Part shown: positions 6,221 through 21,208 of the stretch, one piece after another
Numbering within the stretch: position 1 is the first letter of the stretch
How the letters are laid out: every line of letters begins with the position of its first letter
NCBI RefSeq assembly: GCF_000341395.1
Contig: NC_020304.1
Coordinates: forward strand, 2,460,001 to 2,492,000
DNA: 32,000 bases
Direction of reading: 5' to 3'
From: Desulfocapsa sulfexigens DSM 10523
Lineage (GTDB): Bacteria > Desulfobacterota > Desulfobulbia > Desulfobulbales > Desulfocapsaceae
Program-made: the position numbers and the translations under genes
The notes under the pieces: model-generated
What the model saw: the letters and a program-made list of their open reading frames with translations, nothing else
Databases searched by the model: none
Told to the model about the DNA's origin: nothing

Positions 6221-7204
6221 ATGTCTAGTTCATGTGGATCAAGTAGTTCCTGTTCAAGCAGTTCTTGCGGTAGCAATACCAAAGAATCCCAACAAGCTAA
6301 AATGGCGCAGCAGGACAATGCCATTACCCGATCTCTTGGGAAGATCAAAAATAAAATTCTTGTAATGAGTGGAAAGGGTGGGGTAGGTAAGTCCACCGTC
6401 TCGGTCAATCTGGCACTCGGTCTTGCAGCAAGAGGTCATAAAGTTGGGTTGATGGATGTTGATCTTCATGGCCCGGATGTTATTCGGATGCTTAATCTTA
6501 AGGGAAGCCTTGAGGCGCCAAAGAATCCCAATGATCTCGTTGCTCCCCTTCAGTACAATGATAACCTTAAGGTGGTTTCCCTTGAATATATGATGAAAAA
6601 TCGGGACGAGGCTATCATCTGGCGCGGTCCCTTGAAAATTCAGGCTATTCGTCAGTTCGTCGCTGATATGGATTGGGGTGAATTAGATTACCTCATCGTG
6701 GATGCTCCTCCAGGAACCGGTGATGAACCCCTTTCCGTTGCTCAAACGATTCCTCACGTGAAGGCTATAGTTGTTACAACCCCCCAGAAGGTTGCCCTGG
6801 CCGATGTCCGGAAATCGCTCAATTTTTGTAAGACAGTTGAAATGGATGTGACTGGTATTATAGAAAACATGTCAGGATTTGTCTGTCCTGAATGTAACAC
6901 TACCGTGAATATCTTTAAGACTGGCGGCGGGGAGGAGCTTTCCCGTGAATTTGATTTGCCTTTCCTTGGTGCTGTTCCCATGGATCCGAAGGTTGTTATC
7001 GCTGGAGATGATGGTGTTCCCTATCTTTCATCCGATGCCAAGAGTCCCGCAACTGCGGCTTTTGCCAAGATAATTGATGCTGTTGAGCTGCGTCTGCCTC
7101 CAGTTGCCGCCCCCGTAACCCTGAACATGGCTTCTACTGATTCTGGTTCTTCGGATTGTGGTTGTGGCAGTGGGGGATGCAATCCAAATACCTGTGATTG
7201 CTGA
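6221..7204 (+). CDS. apbC: Mrp/NBP35/ApbC-family iron-sulfur cluster carrier ATPase with Cys/Ser-rich tails at both ends
   Basis: Deviant Walker A SGKGGVGKST, DAPPGTGDE, and the cluster-bridging CPEC motif (GFVCPECNT). GAGGAG SD 6 nt upstream of the ATG at 6221; the track start at 6203 has no SD. Confidence 0.9.
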   Translation: MSSSCGSSSSCSSSSCGSNTKESQQAKMAQQDNAITRSLGKIKNKILVMSGKGGVGKSTVSVNLALGLAARGHKVGLMDVDLHGPDVIRMLNLKGSLEAPKNPNDLVAPLQYNDNLKVVSLEYMMKNRDEAIIWRGPLKIQAIRQFVADMDWGELDYLIVDAPPGTGDEPLSVAQTIPHVKAIVVTTPQKVALADVRKSLNFCKTVEMDVTGIIENMSGFVCPECNTTVNIFKTGGGEELSREFDLPFLGAVPMDPKVVIAGDDGVPYLSSDAKSPATAAFAKIIDAVELRLPPVAAPVTLNMASTDSGSSDCGCGSGGCNPNTCDC

Positions 7205-7239
7205 TATGCGGTAAAATATTTGTCAGCACCACCTGTGCC

Positions 7240-7287
7240 CGATCTTCCTTTTCCATACAGCGAAAACTATTATGGGAAAGGGGATCG
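7240..7287 (+). terminator. Long imperfect hairpin immediately downstream of mrp/apbC; possible terminator, no U-tract
   Basis: cgatcttccttttccata (7240-7257) pairs with tatgggaaaggggatcg (7271-7287): about 17 pairs with one bulge and a few G-U pairs, and a 13-nt loop. Followed by aacacatg, which is not T-rich. Confidence 0.35.
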
Positions 7288-7416
7288 AACACATGTGAGG
7301 CACTGCTGAACGTTTCCCTCTGGGTATACTACTGGTAAAGGACTTGAAAGAGATTCTCAGTGCTTTGAGTTGTTTCTCTTCAGTCTTCAGCCTTTAACTT
7401 CTCTTTTCCTGAATAT

Positions 7417-8046
7417 ATGTTCTTAAAACAAATTACCGTTGGTTCGATGGGAGTGTGCTGCTATATTGTCGGCTGCTCCAAAACTTCCCTGTGTGCTGTG
7501 ATTGATCCCGGCGGCGATGAGGATACTATCCTCGAAGAAGTAAAGAAGGCCGGACTTACCATCGATAGTATTATTGCCACCCATGGTCATCCTGATCATG
7601 TGTGCGGCAATCGAATACTTAAAGAGGCAAGTGGCGCCGATATTATCATGCACGAAGCTGATTCTGCGTTTTTCAGTAAACCTGAAGTGCAGAATTATTT
7701 TTCCATGCTTGGCCTTGAACCGTCTCCTCCTGCGGATCGTACCGTGAAGGATGGTGACGTGATCACTGTTGGTGAGGAAGAACTTCTTGTTATCCATACT
7801 CCTGGACACACCCCTGGCGGGATCTGTCTCTACTGTGCTCCGGATCTGATCACTGGAGATTCTCTGTTTGTTGGCGGTATCGGAAGAACTGATTTTCCCG
7901 GTGGCTCTCATGATGAGCTGATCAGGGCCATCAAGGGAAGACTGCTTAGCCTACCACCGGAAACAGTTGTCTGGCCGGGACATGGTTATGGTGGGTCTCG
8001 TTCAACCATCGAAGAAGAGGCCCGATCTAATCCTTATTTGAGCTGA
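7417..8046 (+). CDS. MBL-fold metallo-hydrolase (glyoxalase II / hydroxyacylglutathione hydrolase-like)
   Basis: 209 aa with the metallo-beta-lactamase motif THGHPDH, later HTPGHTPG, and a C-terminal GHG. Confidence 0.85.
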   Translation: MFLKQITVGSMGVCCYIVGCSKTSLCAVIDPGGDEDTILEEVKKAGLTIDSIIATHGHPDHVCGNRILKEASGADIIMHEADSAFFSKPEVQNYFSMLGLEPSPPADRTVKDGDVITVGEEELLVIHTPGHTPGGICLYCAPDLITGDSLFVGGIGRTDFPGGSHDELIRAIKGRLLSLPPETVVWPGHGYGGSRSTIEEEARSNPYLS

Positions 8047-8070
8047 TTATTCAATAACCAACAATTCCTT

Positions 8071-10002
8071 ATGCGTGAAATAGTCCTAGGTACAGCAGGT
8101 CATGTTGATCATGGCAAAACCAGTTTTGTTCGTGCGCTTACCGGTATTGAGACCGATCGTCTCAAGGAGGAAAAAAAGCGTGGGATTACTATTGAACTGG
8201 GGTTTGCCTACCTTGACCTTCCCTGTGGCCATCGCCTGGGAATTGTGGATGTACCTGGCCATGAAAAATTCGTAAAAAACATGGTGTCCGGAGTCTCTGG
8301 CATGGATCTTGTTGCTTTTATCATTGCAGCAGATGAAGGGATTATGCCGCAGACAGAGGAACATTTTGAAATCTGTCGTCTGTTAGGAGTGAAACAGGGG
8401 ATCATCGTCATTACCAAAAAAGACATGGTGGATGAAGAGTGGCTGGAGATGGTCACCGAGGAGGTACGGGAATACTGTAAAGACAGTTTTCTTGAGGATG
8501 CGCCTCTCGTCCACGTCTCTTCCACCACCGGCGAGGGGATAGACGAGATACGTGGGCTTCTCAATACATTCGTTGCAGGACAGCAATTTAAAGAGGTGCA
8601 TGGACCTTTTCGTCTTCCCGTTGATCGTATATTTGCCATGAAAGGTTTCGGGGCTGTGATTACCGGAACCTCCATGTCTGGACGCGTTGCCATTGGAGAG
8701 GAACTCTGTTTTTATCCCACTGATATGGTTTCTAAAGTACGTGGTATCCAGGTACATTCCGCGGAGGTTGAAACCGTGGAAGCCGGGCATCGTACTGCCA
8801 TAAATCTCCAGGGTGTGGATACTGCTGCAGTGGCTCGCGGAATGGTTGCCGCTACCCCCGGCAGTCTCTTGCCAGGCTATATGCTGGACTGTGAATTCCT
8901 TTATCTTGCGTCAAATACAAAACCTTTAAAACACCGGACTCGGGTTCGGATCCATCTGGGAACAGCTGAGGTCATGGGCAGAATTTCACTCCTTGACCGT
9001 GATTTATTGCAGCCTGGAGATACGGCCAGTATACAGATCCTACTCGAAGAGGCTGTTGCGGTGTGGCCCGGGGATCGCTATGTGGTTCGCTCCTATTCGC
9101 CCGTCGGCACCATAGGTGGCGGCGAGGTTCTTGGCAATATGCCTCCGCGGAAACGCAAGCGTGTCACCGAGCGTGATCGAGAGGCGAACATCCGGAGTTT
9201 TACTGTATTGCGTGGTGAGGACGTAGAAGAGAAAATTCTGCTGTTTCTACGAGAAAGTGGAACCTCGGGACTCACGTTTGATGAACTCGCAGTCCGTCTT
9301 GGGATCTTTGGAAAACAGCTGAAAAAAATAATTACCACTCCCTTATCATCGAGAAAAATTGTGGTGGTGGATTCCTCCAGCCAGCGCTATCTTGCCAAAA
9401 GTGTCAGTGACGGTGTGGAAGAAGTTGTGTTAACAAACCTTGGACGCTATCATAGTTCAAATCCACTGCAGATAGGTCTGTCAAAGGAGGAACTGCGTTC
9501 AGGGCTTGGATCCAATGTTGATCAGAAGGTCTTTCACTTCTGTCTCCTGGAGCTGCAGAAGAAGGAACTGGTTGCTCTGGAAGATTCAGTGGTACGACTT
9601 GCCTCGCATCAGGTTGCTCTACAGGCTGATGAGAAGAAATTACAGGAGGATCTTGAGCACTGGTATCGGGAAAAAGGCTTAATCGCTCCAACCATGCGGG
9701 AGAGCATGGAACAGTTCAATGATTATCCGGAATCGCTGGTGAAAGAGGTCTTTGGGATTTTGCTGAGAGAAGGTAAACTGGTGAAAGTCAGCGAAAGCCT
9801 TTATTATGACGCTGCTGCCATTGATGCATTACGCGAGAAAATGACAGCTTTTATCGAAAATGAAGGGGAGATCGATGCCCCGCGCTTTAAAAATCTCACG
9901 GGGCTGACACGGAAGTTCTCCATTCCTCTTCTTGAATACTTTGATCGTATGAAGCTTACTATTCGAGTGGGCGATAAGCGCGTTCTGAGAAAAACACGAT
10001 AA
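8071..10002 (+). CDS. selB: Selenocysteine-specific translation elongation factor SelB
   Basis: 643 aa. EF-Tu-like GTPase N-terminus ([24 protein letters not shown]) followed by the roughly 270-aa C-terminal winged-helix extension characteristic of bacterial SelB. Confidence 0.9.
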
Positions 10003-10035: not shown

Positions 10036-11211
10036 TCAGCTTTTTATCTTCATCTTCTTCAGTACTATCTCACCAAATATAAATGCCGCCAGAAAAAAGA
10101 ATATTGCTCCAGTGGTGATCATGATTTCATGGAGACTGGGGCTGTATGGGTAGTATTGGGGGAGATCAACCACATTATACTGATAGTAATGGGGGATCAG
10201 TTGGCCAACTATTACCAGATCATAAAAGAGAACAAATGAACCAACAAGACAGGATATGCTGGCAATGGCCATCGTGGTTCTGTTTTGTACTCCGGCAACA
10301 CCAATAAGAATCAATGGCAGTACAACAGCCAGTCCCACCTCGCCTATCCAGAAATTCAAAAAGAAATTGCCCTGAACCAAGTTATACATAGCCTCAGGAT
10401 TTTTTGTGAATTCAGGAAAAAAACCACCCATAACCTTAATGCCGGTGAAATAGGCAATTGCCAGGAGAAGGACCATAAACAGTCTTCCCGTACTTTGAAT
10501 GGCGAGTTCTTCGGCCCGGTTCATGGGCTTTCCTTTCAGAAGTTTGGCGGCCCAGGTGAACAGGATCACCGCTGCGCAACCACAAAGCGTTGAGAGGGAG
10601 AGGAAATAGAGAGGCATGTAGTTCTCATTCCAGAAGCCTCTTTCGCCAAGAAGAGCCATGTCGGATTTCATGTTTAGATTTCCCATGGTCACCGTGATAA
10701 AGGCGATTATGGCAAAAAATCTCGCCATTTTTTCATTTTTTACCAGTAGGGCGAGAAAGTTAAAGAGCATAAAGATCAGGAAGAGGCTGTATATGGTGGT
10801 CTTCCACCATATATTCGAGGCAGGATGTGGGGATGAGAGTGCATTCAGACCTACCCGCCAGGGGTTCTCCAGTTCCAGAGTGATACACATAAGACCTGTG
10901 GCCATGGTGGCGAGAGACAGGAAGACGGTTCGTGGAATAATAGGTTGAAAAATTTCTATTCTAAAGACCTGTCCCAGAGAGGAAATGATACATAGTCCAG
11001 TGGAGAGGCAGGCAAAGAATACGTAAGGAGTGATAAGAATGCCCCATGGCACTTCTCTTGTCGTTCCAAAGGTATGGTGATGTCCAACCAGCAACGAGTG
11101 GAGGCCAAAAGAAAGGCCTATTATACTGAGTAGCGTGAGTCCTGTAAAAAGGAGTTCAGAAGTGCCGAGTAGTGAAGGTTTTGAATCAAAATTTTGCTCG
11201 ATTGTCATCAT
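10036..11211 (-). CDS. NrfD/PsrC-family integral membrane quinone-interacting subunit
   Basis: 391-aa polytopic membrane protein lying directly downstream of a Tat-exported NrfC-like FeS protein. AGGAAA SD upstream of the ATGATG at 11211. Confidence 0.8.
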   Translation of the reverse strand: MMTIEQNFDSKPSLLGTSELLFTGLTLLSIIGLSFGLHSLLVGHHHTFGTTREVPWGILITPYVFFACLSTGLCIISSLGQVFRIEIFQPIIPRTVFLSLATMATGLMCITLELENPWRVGLNALSSPHPASNIWWKTTIYSLFLIFMLFNFLALLVKNEKMARFFAIIAFITVTMGNLNMKSDMALLGERGFWNENYMPLYFLSLSTLCGCAAVILFTWAAKLLKGKPMNRAEELAIQSTGRLFMVLLLAIAYFTGIKVMGGFFPEFTKNPEAMYNLVQGNFFLNFWIGEVGLAVVLPLILIGVAGVQNRTTMAIASISCLVGSFVLFYDLVIVGQLIPHYYQYNVVDLPQYYPYSPSLHEIMITTGAIFFFLAAFIFGEIVLKKMKIKS

Positions 11212-11261: not shown

Positions 11262-12023
11262 TCAGCTCTCCACGTAAAAGACATTTGGCAGGGTGTCCAA
11301 TTCAGGACGCAGTACCCAGAACACTTTCCCAGATGTATGGATCAGTTTGTAGGCATGGCTTGTCGGATCGGTGAGATCTCCGAAAACTCTGACATTTGCG
11401 GGACAGGCCGAGGCGCATGCTGTTGTTTTACCGTTGCTCTCCTTGAGTTTGCTGTTGTAGCAGAAGTTACACTTATCAACCGCTCTGATGGCTTCATCAA
11501 AATACCTGGCATTGTAGGGACATGCCGTCATACAGGTCTTGCAGCCAATACACTTGTCGGTATTCATCTGGACAATGCCGTTTACCGTATCTTTGTAGGT
11601 GGCTCTGGTTGGACAGACTCGTACACAGGGGGCATTGTTGCAGTGATTGCAAAGGATTGGCATAAAGACGCGCTCCCTATGATCGGGTGCTACCGGGACA
11701 CTGCGTTCAAGTACTGTTGTGCGGAAGCCATCATCAGGGACTTTGTTGGTGCTGCGACACGCTTCCATGCATTTTTCGCAGCCGATACAATGCTTTTCTC
11801 TGATAACCATTGTGTAGTGCGGGCTGTAGGGAGACTTGGTTGTCAGTATTTTCCCGCCGCTAAGGGCTCCCGTTGCATTATGGGCCGAAGTCAAAGAGAG
11901 AATTGTTCCTCCTAAAAATACACCCGTGATGGAGAGTCCAAGTTGCAGAAAACAGCGCCTCTCTTTTGAGGGAAGATTCTCTGTGCCTTCATTTTTTAAA
12001 TTTTTTAGATTCGTAATCTTCAT
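11262..12023 (-). CDS. Tat-exported 4Fe-4S ferredoxin-type subunit (NrfC/HybA/DsrO-like)
   Basis: Twin-arginine signal (SKERRCFLQLGLSITGVFLGG). Four Cys clusters: CIGCEKCMEAC, CNHCNNAPCVRVCP, CIGCKTCMTACP, CNFC...CASACP. Confidence 0.9.
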   Translation of the reverse strand: MKITNLKNLKNEGTENLPSKERRCFLQLGLSITGVFLGGTILSLTSAHNATGALSGGKILTTKSPYSPHYTMVIREKHCIGCEKCMEACRSTNKVPDDGFRTTVLERSVPVAPDHRERVFMPILCNHCNNAPCVRVCPTRATYKDTVNGIVQMNTDKCIGCKTCMTACPYNARYFDEAIRAVDKCNFCYNSKLKESNGKTTACASACPANVRVFGDLTDPTSHAYKLIHTSGKVFWVLRPELDTLPNVFYVES

Positions 12024-12060: not shown

Positions 12061-13497
12061 TTAAGGCTCATCGTGGCACATGTTACAGTCCTGTCCGATG
12101 ATTTTGCCAAACTTCGTTTCATGTTCATCATCATGGCAGCGGAAGCAACCATAGCCGTCATCTGCATATTGATGTCCAAGATGTTGCCGGTATGTTCCCC
12201 AGGTGACTTTCATTTTTGGCCACACATTGTTCAGATATGCTTCAAGCAGAAAGGAACCTGATACAACTATCTCCTTTTCATGTTCTGCTACGAATTCGTT
12301 TCCATGACGTTTTGCAACATGTTCGAGCAGGTCTTCAACGATTTTTTCCGCTGCTTCATCCCTGCTGGAATATTCTGTTTTGAGAACACTCATACTGTCC
12401 TCACGAATTCCTGCTATTTCAGGGTTTATTTTCCTGGAGTGGAGACCAAAGTCTATTACTTCTTCGAGGCCATCATAGACGTGGGTGGGACGATTATGAC
12501 AGTCGATACAATCCATGGTTCGCCATTTAAGTGCCACTCCCTCTTCGGGCACTTCATCAGCGATTGAATATTCCTCTGTCACTCCACCGGGTCTGGTAAC
12601 CTTTATTTTTCCAATTTTGGTACGTTTCTCGTCAAGAGCCTGATATTCAACCTTTATGTCGTGACTGACATGCCAGTGAATACCTTCAAATTCGGAAGTT
12701 ATAGGGTTGCGCCCACCGATATGCAGGGATATTTCCTGGGTATCTGCATCGGTCTGATTGTCATTAGTGAAACTGATAAATTCTTTAACTCTCTTACCGT
12801 GGAACTTTTCTGGCCAGTGGCATGATTCACAGGTGTCCCGTGCAGGTCGCAGATGCTCAACGGGAGCAGGAATTGGTCTATTGAAATCCCCATCGATAAC
12901 TGCCTTTACCTGACGCAGTCCTGAAAGCTTGGCTTGGACATACCAGTTTGCTCCGGGGCCGATATGACAGGAAACGCAGGATACTTTTGCATGTGGTGAC
13001 CTCTGATAGGCCGTGTATTCTGGATCCATAACCTGATGGCAGACAACGCCACAGAAGTAGGATGAATCGGTAAAGTGGTATCCCTCATAGGCAACCAGAA
13101 TCAGAACAGTGATGTTGACTACTGAGAGAACAATAAAAAGTAAAATACCCTTTCTGTGCTCCTTATCAGCAAGGTCTATTTTCAGATGTTCCGTGTTAAT
13201 GAGGCTGTCTTTAAACCATTTTTTGCGTCGAAAATAGCAGGAGAGCGGGATAAGGCAGAGGCCAAACAGCATCATTGCCGGTAAAAAAAGAAAGGTAAAA
13301 ATAGCAAAATAGTGATTGGCTATTAATCCAGTGAGATGGCCGATGAGACCTAATATGATCAGGGTGATGGATACGGTTGTCAGTCCCACTCCCAAAAATC
13401 CGAGTGGGGTTTTCCAGGTACAGCCGAGTAAACGTTCCCAGGCACCCAGTTCCTGATCTCCTTTCCCGTCTCCGTTGTTCTGTTGCTGATCGCTCAT
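12061..13497 (-). CDS. Membrane-anchored multiheme cytochrome c (three N-terminal TM helices, NapC/NirT-like first heme pair, six heme-binding motifs)
   Basis: Motifs in order: CGVVCH (CX3CH), CVSCH, CESCH, CIDCH, CFRCH, CNMCH. Three hydrophobic helices within the first 150 aa or so. The start ATG overlaps the upstream stop as ATGA. Confidence 0.85.
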   Translation of the reverse strand: MSDQQQNNGDGKGDQELGAWERLLGCTWKTPLGFLGVGLTTVSITLIILGLIGHLTGLIANHYFAIFTFLFLPAMMLFGLCLIPLSCYFRRKKWFKDSLINTEHLKIDLADKEHRKGILLFIVLSVVNITVLILVAYEGYHFTDSSYFCGVVCHQVMDPEYTAYQRSPHAKVSCVSCHIGPGANWYVQAKLSGLRQVKAVIDGDFNRPIPAPVEHLRPARDTCESCHWPEKFHGKRVKEFISFTNDNQTDADTQEISLHIGGRNPITSEFEGIHWHVSHDIKVEYQALDEKRTKIGKIKVTRPGGVTEEYSIADEVPEEGVALKWRTMDCIDCHNRPTHVYDGLEEVIDFGLHSRKINPEIAGIREDSMSVLKTEYSSRDEAAEKIVEDLLEHVAKRHGNEFVAEHEKEIVVSGSFLLEAYLNNVWPKMKVTWGTYRQHLGHQYADDGYGCFRCHDDEHETKFGKIIGQDCNMCHDEP

Positions 13498-14423
13498 ATC
13501 TCTCCTCCATTTAAGCTTTTCTGTAAAATAGCCGCGCTTTTTTCACCATTTTCTATGATTTTATAGAGTATCTTTTTTTGTTCTCCTCCAACTTGTTCAG
13601 CCTCGCAGTAATCTGCCAGCAGTTGTGAATAATTTATGATACCGTTCAGTCTATTTGTGACTTCATTTACAATGGCAGAAAACTCGGTTTCTCTTCTGCT
13701 GGGGACAACAGGGGCTTGCTCGGTACCTTCTGCTGTCAGGAGCAGTTGATTGAAAGAGTGGATTATATTCTGAACTTCGACACTGTTTTTGTGCTCATTC
13801 TTGAGGTGAATCCGGGTTTTGTCCGTCAGGGCCTGGTGGCTTTGTTTCGAAAGAAAAATAAGAGGTTGAACTGACTTTTTGTAAAGAATAATCAGGGTGA
13901 AAGTCGTCAGGAAGATGATTAATCCCATAAGGACCAGAGCTTTTTTTTGATAATACATGATCCTGTTTTTCATTTCTCCGACGACAATCCGATCAAACTG
14001 AAGAAATTGACTGTTAATCTGACGAAGGAGGCCGAGAGTCTTCAGGGCAAGTGTCCTGTCTGCGGTGGTTTCAGCGCTTTTCTTGAGGTGGATGGAGATT
14101 TCTTCAAGATCAATTTTCTTTAAAAAAGAGAGTTTATATTGTGCCGGGATAAGACGGTTATCCAGTAAGGCAATATATCGTGTGTTGAGTTGCTCAACTT
14201 CCCGGGCGGCAGCAAGGAGCTGGGTGGAATTTTCGGAGAGAAGACCTTCGGTGGCCTGTTCGCGAATAGTTGAGTAGAGGAAAATGGTTTTCTCACTGTC
14301 CTCTACGATGGAATTGTAGGTACCCATAAGACGGTTCTGGGAATAGCCAGTAATTATGAGCATGGCAAGGAGCAGTGCTGTCCCAAGAAAGGCGGCTGTG
14401 CTTAAGCTACGCAGCGATCGCAT
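13494..14423 (-). CDS. Two-TM membrane protein with a periplasmic helical sensor-like domain and a C-terminal histidine-kinase DHp-like segment. It lacks the phospho-acceptor His and has no ATPase domain.
   Basis: TM1 AAFLGTALLLAMLIITG; TM2 ALVLMGLIIFLTTFTLIILY. The C-terminal EFSAIVNEVTNRLNGIINYSQLLADY resembles the H-box (compare GVAHEINNPITGIINFAQILLD in the kinase at 19197-20318), but has N where the His should be. The ORF stops about 45 aa later. Confidence 0.6.
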   Translation of the reverse strand: MRSLRSLSTAAFLGTALLLAMLIITGYSQNRLMGTYNSIVEDSEKTIFLYSTIREQATEGLLSENSTQLLAAAREVEQLNTRYIALLDNRLIPAQYKLSFLKKIDLEEISIHLKKSAETTADRTLALKTLGLLRQINSQFLQFDRIVVGEMKNRIMYYQKKALVLMGLIIFLTTFTLIILYKKSVQPLIFLSKQSHQALTDKTRIHLKNEHKNSVEVQNIIHSFNQLLLTAEGTEQAPVVPSRRETEFSAIVNEVTNRLNGIINYSQLLADYCEAEQVGGEQKKILYKIIENGEKSAAILQKSLNGGEI

Positions 14424-16290
14424 TTGTTTCCCGGAGATTTTGGGGCTGACTGCAGTTTTCCTTAACTGTGCAGGTGCTACAGCTTTGTTCTGGATTTGCT
14501 ACGGCTGCAGCCTCCTTTTTCAAGCTGCATTCGACTATGATCTCAAATTCCTCTCCGTCCAGCGTCTCTACCTGAAGGAGAATCTCAGCAAGATTTTTTA
14601 GAAGACACTGTTCCTGTTTCAATATTCGGACGGCCTCTTCATAGCAGCCTGTCAGGAGTTCGTTGACTTCTTTGTCAATTCGTTTTGTTGTTTCCACACC
14701 CATTATAAGACGACTTCCTGCGCCGCCAAGGAACCCACCGCTTTCCACGGCATAGGCCTGTGGTCCCAGGGTATTGCTCATGCCCCATTTGCATATCATA
14801 TCGGTGGCAATTTGAGTGGCTGTCAGAAGATCTCCCTGAGCGCCTGTGGTCTGCTCTTTGAATATAAGTTCTTCGGCTGCACGTCCGCCCATAAGTACTA
14901 TGATCTTAGTACGAAGGTACTCCTTTGAATAGGCAGGGTGGTCACTGATTGGCAGTTGTTGTGTCTGGCCCAGGGCCATGCCTCGTGGGACGATGGTGAT
15001 TTTGTGGAGTGGGTCGGATTTTGGAAGCTTGCTTGCAAGAATTCCATGCCCTGCTTCATGAAAGGCCAATATCTTCCGGTCTTCTTCACTCATCACCAGT
15101 CCCTTACGTTCAATTCCCATAAGGATACGATCACGAGCCCTTTCAAAGTCTTCATTAATTATCTGATCATTGCCTTTTCTGGCGGCCATAAGTGCAGCTT
15201 CATTTACCAGGTTAGCGAGTTCAGCACCGGTGAAGCCGGAGGTTGCCTTGGCGGTATCTTCTAGATTGACTTCCGGGTGCAGGGCAACCTTGTTTCCATA
15301 CACCTCGAGAATCTTCAGTCTTCCCTTCACATCTGGAGCCAGAATATTGATTTGACGATCAAAACGACCGGGACGTTTCAGTGCAGAATCCAGGATGTCG
15401 GGTCTGTTTGTGGCAGCAAGTACGACAATGGTATCTTCTGTGTTGAATCCATCCATCTCAACGAGCAGGGCATTCAGTGTCTGGCCCCGTTCTTCCTGGC
15501 CTCCTGCCGAGGCACCACCTGTTCTACTCGCTCCAACAGCGTCAATCTCATCGATGAAAACAATACACGGAGTGTTCTTCTTTGCTTCTTTGAAGAGATC
15601 CCTCACTCGTGAGGCGCCGACGCCGACAAACATCTCAACAAAATCGGAACCGCTGAAACTGTAGAACGGCACCTTTGCCTCACCTGCAACTGCTTTTGCA
15701 AGCATGGTCTTACCCGTGCCTGGGGGCCCCTGAAGCAGGATTCCCTTGGGAATGGTTGCACCAATCTTTTTGAAATTTTCCGGATATTTGAGAAAGGAAA
15801 CGATCTCTTCGAGTTCTTCTTTTGCCTCTGGAATCCCGGCTATGTCCTTGAAGGTTAGATTTAGATCCTTGCCGTTGAGGCTGATCAGCTTTTCACTGGC
15901 AAATTTGCTTTCTTCTTCTTTTTTAGTACGGTTTGATGACCACCATGTCGCCATGATCAGGAGAACCACAAAAACAGAAAGAATTGTTACGTAAATAATG
16001 GTAAACCTGTCTGCTTTTACAATAACGCGAATGTTTTTACCTTGGATTCTTTCCAGAAATTTACTGACATCCGGCACCGTTGTCACAAAAGTGTGATCCT
16101 CTCGATTGGTGAATGCAACTTTATTACCGGTAAACTCGAGTTTTACGATCTGATCGTTATTTAAATGCTCTATGACTTCGCTGTAATCCTGGCTGGGATG
16201 TCTGTGTTCAATAAACCAGAGTAGTGCCATAAACATGGCCAGGCCGGCAAAGAGAAAGCAGATAAGCATGTTGCGGACAAGAAGAGCCAT
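14407..16290 (-). CDS. ftsH: ATP-dependent zinc metalloprotease FtsH
   Basis: Two TM helices, Walker A GPPGTGKT, Walker B IVFIDEIDA, SRH TNRPDILDSALKRPGRFDR, zinc site HEAGH. The ATG at 16290 has an AAGGA SD, whereas the track start at 16335 is a GTG with no SD. The last 17 nt overlap the next gene. Confidence 0.95.
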   Translation of the reverse strand: MALLVRNMLICFLFAGLAMFMALLWFIEHRHPSQDYSEVIEHLNNDQIVKLEFTGNKVAFTNREDHTFVTTVPDVSKFLERIQGKNIRVIVKADRFTIIYVTILSVFVVLLIMATWWSSNRTKKEEESKFASEKLISLNGKDLNLTFKDIAGIPEAKEELEEIVSFLKYPENFKKIGATIPKGILLQGPPGTGKTMLAKAVAGEAKVPFYSFSGSDFVEMFVGVGASRVRDLFKEAKKNTPCIVFIDEIDAVGASRTGGASAGGQEERGQTLNALLVEMDGFNTEDTIVVLAATNRPDILDSALKRPGRFDRQINILAPDVKGRLKILEVYGNKVALHPEVNLEDTAKATSGFTGAELANLVNEAALMAARKGNDQIINEDFERARDRILMGIERKGLVMSEEDRKILAFHEAGHGILASKLPKSDPLHKITIVPRGMALGQTQQLPISDHPAYSKEYLRTKIIVLMGGRAAEELIFKEQTTGAQGDLLTATQIATDMICKWGMSNTLGPQAYAVESGGFLGGAGSRLIMGVETTKRIDKEVNELLTGCYEEAVRILKQEQCLLKNLAEILLQVETLDGEEFEIIVECSLKKEAAAVANPEQSCSTCTVKENCSQPQNLRETNAIAA

Positions 16291-16496
16291 ATAGCAGAGT
16301 CCTTTAGGTTGCCATAAAAGAATATGGAAAAGCACCAGCTGATAGAGTTTTAACTGCGTGGGCTTTTCCTGAGGGGAGCAGGTGAACCTCGAAATAGTGT
16401 CGGTAATGAAAGGTAGCTATGTTGCCTTACCGTTGACCATCCATGTTAGCCTTTTTATCACAGGTGGTTAAAATGAGGACTTCACTGTAGACACAT

Positions 16497-16521
16497 CCGC
16501 AGGGGTGAAAACCCCCTGCGG
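16497..16521. terminator. GC-rich 9-bp hairpin between the small-protein pair and the ftsH promoter region
   Basis: ccgcagggg (16497-16505) pairs with cccctgcgg (16513-21) across a 7-nt loop. The T-rich run (catatctttt) follows on the plus strand only, so terminator function for the minus-strand small ORFs is uncertain. Confidence 0.35.
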
Positions 16522-16574: not shown

Positions 16575-16799
16575 TTACATACCACTTACAGCTTTGAGCC
16601 AGCCTCCAGCGAGCTGCAGGGGGCCACCTGCCTGAAACATTGCACTGGCAAGACAGGCGATGCTCCAGAGTCCAACAACCCCTGCAAATGCTGCTATACT
16701 TCCGATAATAACCTTGTCTATTTCGGTGGAAACTGAACTCGTCGTACTGTCTTGAACCGTTGATTTACTTTTTTGTTTAGTAAGTACTGTGTCATCCAT
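16575..16799 (-). CDS. Small (74 aa) single-TM protein, paralog 2 of a tandem pair; family not recognised
   Basis: ATG with a GAGAGGAAAG SD. Hydrophilic S/T/K-rich N-terminus, one TM helix (VIIGSIAAFAGVVGLWSIACLASAMF), then the conserved QAGGPLQL..G...KA..GM tail. Aligns without gaps to the upstream ORF. Confidence 0.65.
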   Translation of the reverse strand: MDDTVLTKQKSKSTVQDSTTSSVSTEIDKVIIGSIAAFAGVVGLWSIACLASAMFQAGGPLQLAGGWLKAVSGM

Positions 16800-16836
16800 T
16801 TTTCTTTCCTCTCATTGATGTGTTTGAAAAGTATCG

Positions 16837-17061
16837 TTACATTCCTGCCAGTGCTTTAAAGTAGCTTCCAACAAGTTGCAGGGGGCCACCGGCCTGGAAC
16901 ATGGCACTCATAAGACATGCGACACTCCATAATGCAACAACGCCTGTAAAGGCTGCAACGCTGCCAAGGATCACTTTGTCAATTTCAGCGGAGGCGCTTG
17001 TTGTTGTTTGTTCATGAGTCCTGGCCTGGCCTTTTTGTTTTGTCAGTGTCGCTTCACTCAT
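16837..17061 (-). CDS. Small (74 aa) single-TM protein, paralog 1 of a tandem pair; family not recognised
   Basis: ATG with an AAAGGAG SD 6 nt upstream. Same architecture as 16575-16799. Lies about 50 nt downstream of a sigma-54 promoter. Confidence 0.65.
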   Translation of the reverse strand: MSEATLTKQKGQARTHEQTTTSASAEIDKVILGSVAAFTGVVALWSVACLMSAMFQAGGPLQLVGSYFKALAGM

Positions 17062-17111
17062 GGGGTCTCCTTTGATGGTGTGAGGGGGATGTTCTGTTCT
17101 GCCTCTCTAGT

Positions 17112-17127
17112 TGCATGCTCCGTGCCA
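17112..17127 (-). promoter_or_regulatory. Sigma-54 (RpoN) -24/-12 promoter for the small-protein pair
   Basis: The minus strand reads TGGCACGGAGCATGCA against the consensus TGGCACG-N4-TTGCW. The GG-to-GC spacing is correct and there is a single mismatch (A for the first T of TTGC). The -12 element lies about 50 nt upstream of the ATG at 17061, and a sigma-54 activator gene is immediately upstream. Confidence 0.65.
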
Positions 17128-17196
17128 GAGTTATGAGAGAAACGGGAAAGAAAGACTTCGTTGTGGGGTAAATTCTCGATATTAAAGGGATAAATA

Positions 17197-17217
17197 ATGT
17201 GCCACAATGTGGTGCAT
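17197..17217. promoter_or_regulatory. 21-bp imperfect palindrome with a CCACA-A-TGTGG core; candidate activator or operator site about 90-110 bp upstream of the sigma-54 promoter
   Basis: atgtgCCACAaTGTGGtgcat. The 11-bp core is a perfect palindrome and the outer ATG/CAT also pair. A related CCACA..TGTGG palindrome sits in the kinase promoter at 20421-20442. Confidence 0.4.
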
Positions 17218-17248
17218 AATTGTGTGCCAGGAAAGACATTACTGGTGG

Positions 17249-17319
17249 TGTCCCAAATGTGTACCAGGGGTGTCCCGCCGATGTCCCACAACTGTCCCGG
17301 AAATGTCCCGTTGTGTCCC
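17249..17319. repeat. Array of seven direct hexamer repeats (six TGTCCC, one TGTACC; GGGACA on the gene strand) phased at 11 bp
   Basis: Hexamer starts at 17249, 17260 (TGTACC variant), 17271, 17282, 17293, 17304 and 17314. Spacings are 11, 11, 11, 11, 11 and 10 bp. The spacers between hexamers are not conserved. Confidence 0.85.
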
Positions 17320-17407
17320 TTATTGGAAATGAGATAAAATCTCAAATAGTTAGGGTAAAGGATGCATTGGTGCTAAGAGAGGAGAGAAGGACGGATGATG
17401 GTGTAGA

Positions 17408-19192
17408 CTATTCTTCTATATTATAACGCTGCATTTGTCTGTAGAGGGTGGAGCGGGCTACTCCAAGAAGTTTTGCTGCCTTTACTTTGTTTCCATTTAC
17501 CTGCTTGAGAGCATTGATGATTTTTTCATCTTCCCGTTGATAATGGGGGCTGATGGAGAAGAGTTCAACGGGATGGTCATGGTGATGAGGGAATGGAGGG
17601 GAACTTTGCAATACTGTTTCTTTTTTGGGGGGATTCTGGAGTTCGTCGGGGAGATGTTGTACCAGGAGCATGGGCCCATCACAAAGTACACATGCCCTTT
17701 CCATGACATGTCTTAGTTCCCGGACATTTCCAGGCCATTGGTAACTGGCCATGCATTCAAGCGCCTGGTCGGAAATAGTCGCAATTTTTTTGTTAAGCTG
17801 TTTTCTGAAAATTGTCAGGAAATGGGTAGCAAGCAGTGGGATACCATTGATTCTTTCGCGCAGGGGAGGCAGTCTTACTTCGATAACCTTGAGGCGGTAA
17901 TATAAGTCTTCCCTGAATTTTCCTTCGGAGACCATTTTTTGAAAGTCAACATTAGTGGCAGCGATAATCCTCACATCCACCTTTAAAGGCGTATCCTGGC
18001 CCACCGGGGTGAACGTTTTTTCCTGGAGAAAACGGAGAAGGAGTAACTGGTTCCGCGGCGAGATATCTCCAATTTCATCAAGGAAGAGCGTTCCTCCATC
18101 AGCTTGAAGCAGCATGCCCTCTCTGTCTCGGTCGGCTCCGGTAAAAGCACCCTTACGATGGCCGAAAAGCTCGCTTTCAAGTAAATTTTCGTTTACGGAG
18201 ACGCAGTCTACCTTGATAAGAGGTTTGTCACGTCGTGAACTTTCGGCATGAAGGGCCTCGGCAGCTAGTTCTTTTCCGGTTCCGGATTCACCTGTAATGA
18301 GGACGGCGGTATCGACCTTACCGATGTTTTCGATCATTTTGTAAACTTCCTGCATGGCCCTACTGGAGCCAACACAGCCATGAAATCGGTTCCGGATTTC
18401 ATTGATTTCTCTTGGTTCTTCGAGACTCATATCCCTTGCTACAATAACAACGCCCTGAAATTCATCATCTTCGCCACGCAACGGTGAGGCATTTAAGCTG
18501 ATGATCTTTGTGGAGTCATCGGCAGTATGGCACTCAATAAGATGTTTTCTCACTTCAGTGCCGTCCTGAAGAACTTTGCGGGCATCATTGAGACAGGCCA
18601 TACCGACTTCTTCTGGGAACTGATCGAGATCATAAAGTCCCTCCGCCCCTTTATCCTTGAGCCATTGTTCTGCTGTTTCATTGAGTTGTACAATCTGCAT
18701 ATTGGCGTCTATCGTTATAATTGCATCGCTGACCGAGCGAAAAATTGTCTCAAGGTAACGACGGAATTTTTCATTTTCCCGAAGCAGTCCTTCAGCTTTA
18801 TTTTCAAGAGACCAGTGCAGAAGTGCCTGGCGGGTAAAACGCAGCAGGGTATTCTTGTTTACAGGTTTGGAAATGTAATCAAAGGCGCCGTGTCTGACGG
18901 ATTCAGTAGCTGTTTCAAGGTTAGGGAATCCTGTTATCATCACCACAGGACATTTTATGTTCAGTTCCCTGGTTTTCTTTAGAAGGTCTGTTCCGCAGGG
19001 ACCTATCAGCACAATGTCACTGATAATAAGGTCATATGTGGTGTTTTTAATTGCTTCAATGGCTTGATCAAAAGTTGCTACGGTGTTGACAAATTGATAC
19101 CCTTCAGAGGTAAGAAAAATTTCGAATGTCTGGCGGATAGACTCTTCATCGTCGACAATAAGGATGTGGGCAGAATATAAGTCGTGCTCCAT
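17408..19192 (-). CDS. Sigma-54-dependent response regulator (REC-PAS-AAA+-Fis-type HTH; NtrC family bEBP)
   Basis: REC domain (ILIVDDEES...LIISDIVL...KPV), a central PAS-like region, AAA+ with Walker A GESGTGKE and the sigma-54 contact loop GAFTGA, and a C-terminal HTH (AAKLLGVARSTLYRQMQRY). I prefer the ATG at 19192, 4 nt after the kinase stop, to the track's TTG at 19219. Confidence 0.92.
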   Translation of the reverse strand: MEHDLYSAHILIVDDEESIRQTFEIFLTSEGYQFVNTVATFDQAIEAIKNTTYDLIISDIVLIGPCGTDLLKKTRELNIKCPVVMITGFPNLETATESVRHGAFDYISKPVNKNTLLRFTRQALLHWSLENKAEGLLRENEKFRRYLETIFRSVSDAIITIDANMQIVQLNETAEQWLKDKGAEGLYDLDQFPEEVGMACLNDARKVLQDGTEVRKHLIECHTADDSTKIISLNASPLRGEDDEFQGVVIVARDMSLEEPREINEIRNRFHGCVGSSRAMQEVYKMIENIGKVDTAVLITGESGTGKELAAEALHAESSRRDKPLIKVDCVSVNENLLESELFGHRKGAFTGADRDREGMLLQADGGTLFLDEIGDISPRNQLLLLRFLQEKTFTPVGQDTPLKVDVRIIAATNVDFQKMVSEGKFREDLYYRLKVIEVRLPPLRERINGIPLLATHFLTIFRKQLNKKIATISDQALECMASYQWPGNVRELRHVMERACVLCDGPMLLVQHLPDELQNPPKKETVLQSSPPFPHHHDHPVELFSISPHYQREDEKIINALKQVNGNKVKAAKLLGVARSTLYRQMQRYNIEE

Positions 19193-19196
19193 AAAT

Positions 19197-20318
19197 TCAG
19201 ATCCCTGCTGGAAGTTCAATGATCATTTCTGTGAATTGGTCGAGTATGGAGTTCACCCGCAGGTCACCTCCATGGTCTTTTATGATTCCATAGCTGATGC
19301 TGAGTCCGAGTCCTGTGCCCTCACCAGGAGGTTTCGTGGTGAAGAACGGTTCGAAGAGGCGCTCCAGAAGGGATTGAGGCAGACCGGTTCCATAATCTTT
19401 AATGGTTATGAAGTACACACAGGATTGTCCCTTCTTTTTTTTCTCACAAGTGATTTCAATCTTCTTTTGTGGATTGGGGGAAGGGTATCGGGCGTTTAAG
19501 GCGTAGCGGCTGTTGCTGATAAGGTTAAGAATAACCTGCTGCAGTTGTCTGAAATCGGCAATGATGAAAAAGTCTTTTTTTGGAAAGTCTGTTACTATCC
19601 TGATACCATCCTTGCTCAGTTGATGCCGCACCAGCGTAAGACTTTCTCTGATTACTTCCACAGGATTGACGGGTCCCTGGTCACGACCGTCTGCCCGTGA
19701 AAAAGAGAGCAGGTTGTGGGTGATTGAGGCTATCCGATCACCTTCATGGATAATTTTATGTATGATACTTTCTCCGGTGGCATCAAGCTTGTAGTTATCC
19801 AGCAGTATTTGAGCAAAATTGATGATGCCCGTGATGGGGTTGTTGATCTCATGGGCAACGCCCGCAGCAAGTTCACCAATGGCTGCCAGTTTGGCAGTAC
19901 GTATGGAGTCAACTCGGCGGCTTTCATCCCCGGAGAGTTCCCTGGCGATGAGCATGATTTTATCTATTGTTCCATCGGGCTCTTTAACCGGGGAAATGGT
20001 AAAGGAATATTCACCGAAGAGTCCGGGAAGTCGAGTCTCTTCAACTTTTGGAGAACAGGTCTTGAGAAATTCTTCCAGGGGGCATTTGATATGCGGCCAT
20101 CTGCCACCATGAACAATCTTACAGATCCCCTTGCCAACCACCTCTTTTCTCTCTTTCTTTGCAGCGAGCAGCGTTGCATTGTTTGCCTCAATAATGGTGC
20201 CATCGGGGCTTACAACAATTACAGGATCCTGGATAGCGTTGAAAAGTTGCTCCCAGGTGCCGCCGTGGTGGGTTTCCGATGTGGGGGAATGGTTGGGAGC
20301 AGTCTGCGGGGTGAGCAA
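19197..20318 (-). CDS. Soluble PAS-domain sensor histidine kinase (PAS-HisKA-HATPase_c), TTG start
   Basis: H-box GVAHEINNPITGII, N-box ILNLISNSRYAL, G1 IKDYGTGL, G2 GEGTGLGLSISYGI. No TM segments. The only available in-frame start downstream of the upstream TAA is the TTG at 20318, with GGAG 9 nt upstream. Confidence 0.9.
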   Translation of the reverse strand: MLTPQTAPNHSPTSETHHGGTWEQLFNAIQDPVIVVSPDGTIIEANNATLLAAKKERKEVVGKGICKIVHGGRWPHIKCPLEEFLKTCSPKVEETRLPGLFGEYSFTISPVKEPDGTIDKIMLIARELSGDESRRVDSIRTAKLAAIGELAAGVAHEINNPITGIINFAQILLDNYKLDATGESIIHKIIHEGDRIASITHNLLSFSRADGRDQGPVNPVEVIRESLTLVRHQLSKDGIRIVTDFPKKDFFIIADFRQLQQVILNLISNSRYALNARYPSPNPQKKIEITCEKKKKGQSCVYFITIKDYGTGLPQSLLERLFEPFFTTKPPGEGTGLGLSISYGIIKDHGGDLRVNSILDQFTEMIIELPAGI

Positions 20319-20414
20319 GGTATGTGACTCCGGATCAGTTTAAGTTTCATTTCCCACGGTATTCTGGCCCTGATTTTGTGGAATGATTTGTCAGGTTGAT
20401 TTCCTGACAACTGT

Positions 20415-20443
20415 AGTATACCACAGTGTGTTACACATGTGGA
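20415..20443 (-). promoter_or_regulatory. Candidate sigma-70 promoter of the kinase/activator operon, with an operator-like palindrome in the spacer
   Basis: The minus strand reads TCCACA-17 nt-TATACT with a TG extended -10 (TGGTATACT). The spacer contains the palindrome TGTGT-N-ACACA flanked by TGTGG/CCACA (20421-20442). Confidence 0.35.
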
Positions 20444-20566: not shown

Positions 20567-21208
20567 TTATTCTTTGAGGAGTTTCAAGAGTAATTTTTTA
20601 AAGTGGGTTAACTTCACAGGTAAAATATCAATTTCCACCTGGATCAGATCGTAAAATTCCATAATCTGTTCATCGCTTAAGGAATCCATCCCCGTGTCTA
20701 GAATAATAATCTTGTTATACCAGCCAAGATTCAGGCGAGCGTCGGTAACAGACCATTGACCATCCTGAATGGACTGATTAATCATCCTGATCCAGGCAGG
20801 AGTCATAAGAGAGGTGCGGTTCTTTTGTAATTCTTTGGCAAGGTCATCACCAATCAGCATATCAATACAGTTTCTTGCGTGAGGAATCTTTCCTCCACAG
20901 TCTTCAACAACATCAGCTATATTCCGTTTTCCCTTACAATGTTTACCTACGAGAAAGCGAACTCTGTCCCCGTTTTTGATGGCTCTGTCGATACCTTCCT
21001 GCAATTGCTCCTCCATTGTGTGGGGATTGTTGTGGATGGTATAATGCATGTAGTCGATATGTGGACTTAGATTCAATTCGGCAAGAACACTTTCAAGTTC
21101 ATCACGAAAAATAGGACAGGTGATAAGGGAGATATCTCTGCGTTCAGTGATATCCTTTTTTGGAAAAGAAGAAAGTTCTTCGGTCTGTTTACAGAGAGAG
21201 CTTTGCAT
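20567..21208 (-). CDS. DUF1638-like protein of unknown function
   Basis: 213 aa. The pattern ITCPIFRDELE...H..P..MEEQLQEGID...CKG...CIDMLIGDD...TPAW matches my recollection of the DUF1638 family layout. The gene is visibly more AT-rich than its neighbours. Confidence 0.55.
   Translation of the reverse strand: MQSSLCKQTEELSSFPKKDITERRDISLITCPIFRDELESVLAELNLSPHIDYMHYTIHNNPHTMEEQLQEGIDRAIKNGDRVRFLVGKHCKGKRNIADVVEDCGGKIPHARNCIDMLIGDDLAKELQKNRTSLMTPAWIRMINQSIQDGQWSVTDARLNLGWYNKIIILDTGMDSLSDEQIMEFYDLIQVEIDILPVKLTHFKKLLLKLLKE

Follow-up and report, generated by a model that had tools for sequence, protein, structure and literature searches.

A predicted sigma-54-controlled family of small membrane proteins encoded beside ftsH in Desulfocapsa sulfexigens and its relatives

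The 32-kb stretch of Desulfocapsa sulfexigens DSM 10523 DNA analyzed here (the window) carries on its minus strand genes for a PAS histidine kinase, a sigma-54 activator, and two 74-amino-acid (aa) membrane proteins, the latter identical to UWK_02213 and UWK_02212 and referred to below as small proteins 1 and 2 (Table 1). The results presented here indicate that this module is a conserved, lineage-wide unit in and near the Desulfobulbales rather than an oddity of one genome, and that the small membrane proteins that appear to be its effectors constitute an undescribed family. The explanation that best fits the data as a whole, in which a sigma-54 module produces small proteins that act on the FtsH and cytochrome unit encoded next to them, is one we hold tentatively, as close to an even chance without reaching it. 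Its regulatory part is highly probable, and its functional part, that the small proteins work with the FtsH/cytochrome unit, is put forward as a reasonable possibility with the balance somewhat against it. An earlier sequence-only reading of positions 16575-20443 had described the kinase, the activator, a repeat array, a promoter, and the small open reading frames (ORFs) in this order on the minus strand, and all of these elements are present where it put them.

The comparison draws on a close set of 29 loci, returned by a genome scan with an alignment of the family, whose hosts are Desulfocapsa, Desulfobulbus alkaliphilus, Candidatus Desulfobia, and Desulfobulbaceae metagenome-assembled genomes, all of them Desulfobulbales-type, and on a wider survey of 118 loci that yielded 100 gene clusters after de-duplication; Desulforhopalus was the single named host added by cluster look-ups. 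The 360 nt 5' of the first small gene were aligned for the 29 loci, a -24/-12 motif was counted in the promoter survey when it lay no more than 260 nt upstream of a small gene, and gene-content counts come from the well-covered loci, 15 close and 19 distant.

The small proteins and their sigma-54 promoter

Both small ORFs are real genes under strong purifying selection. Measured against orthologues, the ratio of nonsynonymous to synonymous substitution rates (dN/dS) is 0.07-0.15 for small protein 1 and 0.05-0.08 for small protein 2 wherever dS could be estimated, and it is 0.01-0.06 over residues 28-74, the values for small protein 1 in this part being 0.03-0.06, with the N-terminal 27 residues relaxed (0.2-0.9). 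The two proteins are 64% identical, each is preceded by a ribosome-binding site, and each has one predicted span, in agreement with their earlier description as tandem paralogues with a single transmembrane segment; the number two holds for the window but not for the family, as small-gene copy number across the clusters is one, two, or three. A word-indexed search returned 146 relatives and a profile search 656, nearly all of 74 aa, and an exhaustive HMMER search over 1.84 billion representatives yielded relatives in 160 clusters at 50% identity, with a length that is nearly always 60-80 aa. The family has a T/K/S-rich N-terminal tail (26.8 +/- 3.2 aa, 4.1 K+R), a single G-, A-, and S-rich membrane helix in which a Trp is nearly invariant and a Cys is common, a GGP break (GG-P or G-P) after this helix, and an amphipathic C-terminal segment of 17.0 +/- 0.9 aa with 0.8 K+R, of the type LxLxxxWFxAVxG[M/L]. 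Because of this difference in charge, the positive-inside rule predicts a single span with the N-terminus inside and the C-terminus outside. The AlphaFold model of small protein 1 consists of a long helix, the GGP break, and a short helix, with a predicted local distance difference test score (pLDDT) of 66.

Searches of Pfam, NCBIfam, PHROGs, PADLOC, and PDB sequence profiles gave no match for the small proteins, as anticipated by the sequence-only reading, which could place them in no family, and a scan of viral contigs (IMG/VR) returned no relatives. Three grounds on which that reading might have failed, namely an absence of homologues, a dN/dS near 1, and membership in a characterized family, were examined and none came true. 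Weak, scattered matches to podoplanin, holin, and a type IV secretion system pilin in 2-3 of 62 members were taken as membrane-helix noise. An antenna alpha/beta polypeptide was rejected because His is absent from the invariant and near-invariant columns; Psp proteins were rejected because neither the small proteins nor their neighbors match any Psp model and because the activator has REC and PAS domains; and the known FtsH modulator families (YccA/BI-1, HflK/C, SpoVM, CIII) were rejected because no match to the small proteins was obtained in Pfam, NCBIfam, or PDB.

It is extremely improbable that the small proteins are precursors of exported or processed peptides (a two-peptide bacteriocin, a pheromone, or a lipopeptide) cleaved at the GG or at the helix Cys. 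Tandem paralogues with a dedicated two-component system do resemble class II bacteriocin loci, the GG (residues 58-59) does not vary, and Cys49 is located where a hydrophobic stretch ends. However, conservation is highest in the 15 residues past the GG and variation is concentrated in the N-terminal region, which is the reverse of a leader/core arrangement and is also the reason for which a class II double-glycine bacteriocin was rejected, and the GG is followed by a Pro. Many members have Ser or Ala at the position of Cys49, so there is no obligatory lipobox, and with S, A, or G at position -3 a lipoprotein was likewise rejected. The positive-inside rule also predicts a stable N-in membrane anchor rather than a released peptide, and none of the annotated or matched genes of the related loci, as covered by six query proteins and a handful of annotated loci, was recognized as encoding a C39-peptidase ABC exporter, an immunity protein, or a modification enzyme.

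The phased repeats, the palindrome, and the -24/-12 promoter that had been read in the spacer between the activator and the small genes were all recovered. In the 29-locus alignment, TGGCACG-N5-TGC is aligned in 29/29 loci along with the ribosome-binding site AAGGAGA, a CA-N5-TTA block is kept about 45 nt upstream of the promoter, and GGGACA(C) recurs three to seven times, once every 11 bp, in the region 200-300 nt ahead of the start codon, with an oppositely oriented copy, GTGTAGC, preceding the array in many loci. Since the promoter, the ribosome-binding site, the IHF-like element, and the phased repeats align in every one of these loci, their co-occurrence is not due to chance. A transcript start is predicted near 17100. 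The IHF-like site in the window differs at one position from WATCAANNNNTTR, which we take to be the IHF consensus, and an equivalent of the inverted repeat next to the activator stop, TG(G/A)GA..TC(C/T)CA, occupies the same position in many close loci. GGGACA occurs just 22 times in the window, counting both strands, and the array is the only one; that the only repeat array and the only -24/-12 promoter of the window both precede the small genes supports the earlier proposal that the kinase and activator are dedicated to them. Two further GGCACA copies, 25 bp apart at 17199-17229 (minus strand), lie between the array and the IHF-like site; as TGGCACA they resemble -24 boxes, they are one mismatch from GGGACA, and they are not kept in relatives. 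Neither the window nor the intergenic regions matched any Rfam family.

Beyond the close loci, the -24/-12 motif is present in 46 of the 66 distant clusters as well as in 25 of the 26 close ones, against a chance rate that we estimate at about 0.003 per 400 nt, and some of the clusters lacking it have a variant promoter, as in L041, where TGGCAC-N5-CTGGCA is accompanied by a palindromic TTGCCA..TGGCAA enhancer and a different activator without REC. These data argue that sigma-54 control is a trait of the small-protein family. The distant loci have the same layout with another hexamer (TGTTGC, TGTGGC, or TGTCGC), often 11 bp apart. When the C-terminal helix-turn-helix (HTH) of each activator was tabulated against the commonest TGTNNC half-site in the spacer downstream, TGTCCC was paired with an ARSTLYRQM helix in all 18 close loci with a readable activator C-terminus, and TGT[TGC]GC with a [DNH]RSTLYRKM helix in every distant locus tabulated. 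Because the half-site covaries with the HTH helix, the phased repeats are very probably the binding sites, and thus the enhancer, of the adjacent activator. Loci L020 and L026 come from genomes that contain both module types, each with its own half-site, which suggests insulation between paralogous modules. The second module, located at 11871-15784 in L020, at 7111-10776 in L026, and at 4587-8103 in L024, is 57-62% identical to the first; it lies downstream of the ftsH operon, contains two or three small genes that are 30-40% identical, and has the half-site TGTTGC.

In nearly all close loci a terminator composed of an A-tract, a GC stem, and a T-tract follows about 50 nt past the last small gene (-20 to -38 kcal/mol), so that the small genes form a unit of their own, which supports the earlier view of them as the direct output of the module. 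The corresponding hairpin in the window has no coding-strand T-run, and termination after the small genes may for this reason be leakier in D. sulfexigens. Between the terminator and ftsH lie a promoter-like sequence and a further conserved hairpin with a T-run. This hairpin belongs to the ftsH leader, 40-70 nt ahead of the start of the gene, and may function in attenuation or as a thermosensor. In the window this leader hairpin occupies 16326-16369 (minus strand), and in relatives L005-L022 it reads CTGTCACGAC..GTGACAG TCTTTTTGAAAA and is followed by a T-run. These elements bear on an alternative that we judge highly unlikely, in which the true target is the ftsH-sensor-cytochrome operon, reached by sigma-54 read-through, and the small ORFs are a leader-like or insulator cassette. 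It would accommodate the shared strand of all the genes, the conserved order from small gene to ftsH, the possibly leaky hairpin of the window, and the lack of an obvious terminator between small genes and cytochrome in some distant loci, which was inspected in L041 only and is ambiguous there. However, the selection on residues 28-74 and the existence of about 160 clusters are a misfit for a mere leader, a canonical strong terminator stands in the way in nearly all close loci, ftsH is preceded by its own conserved leader hairpin and promoter-like sequence, and in some loci the activator and small gene are followed by convergent unrelated genes.

Table 1. Features of the window discussed in the text, with the module first and the neighboring genes last
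Feature	Position	Strand	Description
Small membrane protein 1, UWK_02213	16837-17061	-	74 aa; ribosome-binding site AAGGAGA at 17066-17072
Small membrane protein 2, UWK_02212	16575-16799	-	74 aa; preceded by purine-rich ribosome-binding site GAGAGGAAAG
Sigma-54 -24/-12 promoter (predicted)	17112-17127	-	TGGCACGGAGCATGCA; sole exact TGGCACG-N5-TGC in the window
IHF-like site	17169-17181	-	TATCGAGAATTTA; between enhancer and promoter
Enhancer (predicted)	17249-17319	-	seven half-sites: GGGACA, six exact, and GGTACA, one; 10/11-bp spacing
Imperfect inverted repeat	17330-17344	-	TGAGA-N5-TCTCA; just 3' of the activator stop
Intergenic spacer	17062-17407	-	346 bp
Sigma-54 activator	17408-19219	-	Pfam Response_reg, PAS_4, Sigma54_activat, AAA_lid_14, HTH_8
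Soluble PAS histidine kinase	19197-20318	-	Pfam PAS_4, HisKA, HATPase_c; without hydrophobic N-terminus
Operator-like palindrome	20388-20410	-	TTGTCAGG-N7-CCTGACAA
Sigma-70-like promoter of kinase/activator operon	20415-20443	-	TCCACA, 17 nt, TG-n-TATACT (consensus scan)
GC-rich hairpin	16497-16521	-	9-bp stem; about 50 nt 3' of the second small gene
ftsH (AAA+ membrane protease)	14407-16335	-	likely start near 16290; same strand as the small genes
309-aa membrane protein	13494-14423	-	overlaps ftsH stop; hydrophobic near 8-26 and 161-181 (by eye)
Six-heme membrane cytochrome c	12061-13497	-	three hydrophobic N-terminal segments (by eye); NapC/NirT homology; six CxxCH
4Fe-4S protein	11262-12023	-	end region of the conserved cluster in the D. 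sulfexigens lineage
NrfD-type membrane subunit	10036-11211	-	last gene of the conserved cluster in the D. sulfexigens lineage

The activator and the kinase

With a receiver domain (PF00072, E 3e-23), an intact sigma-54 AAA+ domain (PF00158, E 1e-67), and a Fis-type HTH (PF02954, E 1e-10), the activator falls into the NtrC class of enhancer-binding proteins. Its GAFTGA loop is intact ('GHRKGAFTGADRD'), as had been noted before, and the Walker A motif GESGTGKE can also be read in the protein. The ORF as listed begins at a TTG that overlaps the kinase gene, and the probable start is the ATG at 19192, 4 nt past the kinase stop, which reproduces the spacing originally given for a soluble PAS kinase and its activator. 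The kinase contains the motif C-x3-H-G-G-x2-P-H-I-K-C-P in its PAS domain (residues ~62-76; window 19950-20130, minus strand); this motif is found in 17 of 19 aligned cluster-linked kinases and altered in L018, L031, and L033, and its Cys and His residues suggest a site for a bound metal or cofactor.

A sigma-70 promoter with an operator-like palindrome had also been proposed ahead of the kinase, and this was borne out only in part. The extended -10 element, TGTGnTAnnnT, is kept among orthologous loci, but the promoter taken alone scores no better than expected from shuffled sequence, and the palindrome is kept only in the closest relative, L001. Farther upstream, a DUF1638 gene at 20567-21208 (minus strand), between tilS and the kinase gene, is found among related loci only in L004 and therefore lies outside the conserved unit.

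The ftsH, 309-aa, and cytochrome neighborhood

The description of the module as self-contained did not survive the comparison of loci, as the next genes on the same strand, encoding FtsH, the 309-aa protein, the cytochrome, the iron-sulfur (FeS) protein, and the NrfD-type subunit, are conserved with it, which places both its input and its place of action probably outside 16575-20443. The kinase, the activator, ftsH, and the 309-aa protein are each present in 15/15 close loci and in 13, 16, 15, and 9, respectively, of the 19 distant ones. The cytochrome is present in 12/15 close and 11/19 distant loci, where its copies are 57-67% identical, and the FeS and NrfD genes are present in 11/15 close loci and rarely detected in the available distant-locus sequence. 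The activator lies directly upstream of the small genes, with the order activator-promoter-small gene kept, in 18 of 20 close and 18 of 36 distant loci, which supports the sequence-only reading. The commonest partner of the small genes after the activator is ftsH, which immediately follows them in 21/22 close clusters and in 18/43 distant ones and, among the latter, lies at any position within the locus in 20/26. This adjacency persists where FtsH is just 45-59% identical to that of the window, and the outer flanks vary, with tilS upstream in only three loci. That the adjacency survives such deep divergence and changed flanks favors a link of the small proteins to the FtsH unit.

The composition of individual loci varies. 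In L048-L053 and L065 the activator, the small genes, the 309-aa protein, and the cytochrome occur without ftsH; L038 contains MerR, NrfD, two small genes, and ftsH, with neither kinase nor activator; L033 has an activator, a small gene, a multiheme cytochrome c, a cytochrome b, two further small genes, and ftsH; and L035 has ftsH, a cytochrome c3, an FeS protein, an unannotated 417-aa ORF in an NrfD-type position, a longer pseudo-kinase, and small genes. Family members thus adjoin NrfD or cytochromes in L033, L035, and L038. In L019, a 5' ftsH fragment and a 3' activator fragment (8470-9066) lie between the small gene and an intact ftsH and look like the remnant of a local duplication or rearrangement.

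The small proteins could instead be generic membrane-stress effectors of a Psp-like kind, with the ftsH/cytochrome neighborhood simply inherited and no direct interaction involved. In the phage-shock response, small inner-membrane effectors (pspABCDE, pspG) are driven by sigma-54 under membrane or energy stress, so that PspF and pspG are a precedent for small membrane proteins controlled by sigma-54. The strong ribosome-binding site, near-consensus promoter, and tight terminator are signals of burst expression, the copy number of one to three fits a dosage effect, and some members lack the ftsH/cytochrome context. However, PspA, B, C, D, and G show no similarity to the small proteins; PspF is controlled by PspA and has neither REC nor PAS, unlike the module activator, which falls below the PspF model cut-offs; and inheritance alone explains poorly an adjacency to ftsH that is maintained at 45-59% FtsH identity with both flanks different. 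On this evidence, a generic stress role of this kind appears unlikely.

The hydrophobic segments of the 309-aa protein flank a helical outer domain, and its C-terminus is a DHp-like helix pair that is closest to the DHp of the module kinase (33% identity over 51 aa, E 2e-7). The position of the phospho-His is occupied by Asn in 43/43 orthologues, none has a usable His, and all but one (in L035) end right after the DHp. Given the absence of the phospho-His and of HATPase_c, and a HisKA match of only E 0.17, a role as a histidine kinase was rejected. A single-sequence model is all-helical (pLDDT 58). Its gene overlaps those of ftsH and the cytochrome and is translationally coupled to both, the start of the cytochrome gene overlapping its stop. 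Because of the DHp likeness and this coupling, the 309-aa protein may be linked as a sensor to the kinase. DivL and RetS, the latter acting on GacS, are likewise histidine-less or signaling-only relatives of kinases that work through other kinases, and contact between DHp domains is a known mode of action of pseudo-kinases; unlike them, the 309-aa protein is much shorter and is co-translated with ftsH. We know of no histidine-less kinase-like partner described for any sigma-54 system. The cytochrome has the architecture described for Geobacter ImcH. The genome paper mentions only UWK_02207 and UWK_02209, both in passing; its labels, polysulfide reductase for the NrfD gene and molybdopterin oxidoreductase for UWK_02209, are not supported by the sequence.

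Proposed function and comparison with known systems

In the mechanism we propose, the soluble PAS kinase would phosphorylate the REC-PAS-AAA+-HTH activator, which would bind the 11-bp-phased TGTCCC half-sites about 160 bp upstream of the promoter and be brought by an IHF-type bend to sigma-54 polymerase at TGGCACG-N5-TGCA. A short, strongly translated operon, ending in a hairpin (a canonical terminator in nearly all relatives), would then fire and yield one to three copies of a ~70-aa inner-membrane protein with its N-terminus inside. The signal may be a redox or metal state read by the Cys/His PAS motif of the kinase, and the histidine-less 309-aa protein, by analogy with pseudo-kinases, may relay membrane or periplasmic input to the soluble kinase. 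The small proteins, in turn, would act on or with FtsH, the 309-aa sensor, and the six-heme quinone-side cytochrome, either as inducible accessory subunits of the cytochrome complex, in the manner of HmcD, or as modulators or decoy substrates of FtsH turnover, in the manner of YccA or lambda CIII. Either option may apply, and present evidence does not separate them. A more elaborate version, rather unlikely as a whole, is a hitherto undescribed three-part circuit of the Desulfobulbales in which the 309-aa protein reports the state of the respiratory membrane to the kinase, one activator protomer occupies each half-site, and the microproteins bind FtsH or the cytochrome complex and thereby retune turnover or electron flow.

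Several observations weigh against tying the small proteins to the FtsH/cytochrome unit. The terminator between the small genes and ftsH speaks against obligatory co-expression. L031 and L032 have an activator and a family member without ftsH or cytochrome, and in L031 convergent unrelated genes follow. In L036, two family members (7001-9528) are found in a nif cluster, and in L037, three (6462-7198) are found on a phage-like contig, all of which indicates that the link to FtsH or the cytochrome is frequent rather than universal. Furthermore, the named hosts are all in or near one order, the Desulfobulbales, and the synteny could in part reflect inheritance. The connection to HmcD consists of precomputed matches in neighbor proteins and a weak match with a custom hidden Markov model, and the monomer model of small protein 1 is of low confidence. 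The literature holds no experiment or expression record for any family member, and no paper was found that mentions UWK_02212, UWK_02213, or the combined search terms. As to the two divergent loci themselves, the L036 pair is directly upstream of genes for a GAF-type NifA-like sigma-54 activator, nifH, P-II, and nifDK, with no -24/-12 motif found by pattern search. The L037 contig also encodes a family-B DNA polymerase, an HNH protein, a T4-type RNA ligase, and a phage metallopeptidase, and one of its three family members is a fusion with an HmcD-like domain.

Annotation overlooks most small membrane proteins; regulators are known for only a few of them, and dedicated regulators are rarer still. 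The family described here, with its roughly 160 clusters, gains from these data a clear on-switch, a predicted activator binding code, and a short list of likely partners, namely FtsH, the pseudo-kinase sensor, and the inner-membrane cytochrome. The matched pairs of HTH helix and half-site, with two apparently insulated pairs in one genome, also provide a case for the enhancer specificity of sigma-54 activators. The host order includes sulfur disproportionators and sulfate reducers that are important in sediments, and the module may reveal one way in which the quality control of membrane proteins is linked to the state of respiration in anaerobes. The regulatory scheme itself is standard; what is new is the effector family, the conserved pseudo-kinase partner, and the tight linkage to ftsH.

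The signaling half appears to be an ordinary NtrC-class system that is the orthologue of no named one and has an unusual enhancer of half-sites on the same face. AtoS/AtoC, ZraS/ZraR, and NtrB/NtrC share with it the layout of a kinase and a REC-AAA+(GAFTGA)-Fis-type HTH activator, as well as an upstream enhancer, an IHF-type site, and a -24/-12 promoter. AtoS is the best NCBIfam match of the module kinase, and AtoC, NtrC, and ZraR are the best matches of the activator, but orthology to these was rejected on bit scores below the equivalog cut-offs (399 versus 714, 393 versus 559, and 363 versus 760, respectively). The module activator differs from all three by an additional PAS domain between REC and AAA+. 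Whereas the NtrC-class enhancer consists of one or two palindromes, that of the module has three to seven half-sites in the same orientation, spaced by 11 bp, and an end of the run frequently bears one or more copies in the opposite orientation; the target of the module, unlike theirs, encodes small membrane proteins only.

For the proposed effect on FtsH, YccA, lambda CIII, SpoVM, and MgtR provide precedents, as small membrane or amphipathic proteins that bind FtsH, inhibit it, or are degraded by it. FtsH reportedly needs a cytoplasmic tail of about 20 residues to start degrading a membrane protein (work of Chiba, Akiyama, and Ito), and the predicted cytoplasmic tail of the small proteins, about 27 aa and conserved in length but not in sequence, exceeds this. 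The known FtsH modulators have no sequence similarity to the small proteins, and to our knowledge none of them adjoins ftsH under a dedicated sigma-54 system.

For an accessory-subunit role, the comparison is with HmcD (DVU_0533), the 5.8-kDa membrane subunit of the Hmc cytochrome/FeS/NrfD complex, a tiny protein encoded together with a multiheme cytochrome, an FeS protein, and an NrfD protein. Beside 65-aa family members there are genes for ~100-aa proteins that combine a family-like N-terminus with PF28260 ('DVU_0533') in precomputed Pfam annotation, from which PF28260 is absent for UWK_02213 and UWK_02212. The likeness is therefore one of fusion and neighborhood only, and the small genes of the window, for their part, have their own promoter and terminator.

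The closest biological parallel that we found appears to be the BccR/cbcBA system of Geobacter sulfurreducens, in which a sigma-54 promoter precedes genes for the hypothetical proteins GSU0597 and GSU3489 and then for inner-membrane cytochromes, with induction at low redox potential (bioRxiv 10.1101/2021.04.15.440034). BccR is a REC-type sigma-54 activator without a PAS domain and is divergently transcribed (bioRxiv 10.1101/2021.04.15.440034). In gene order this system resembles L033, both containing an activator, small or hypothetical proteins, and cytochromes, but the cytochromes of cbcBA belong to the same operon, whereas in the module described here a terminator splits the small genes from the operon that follows.

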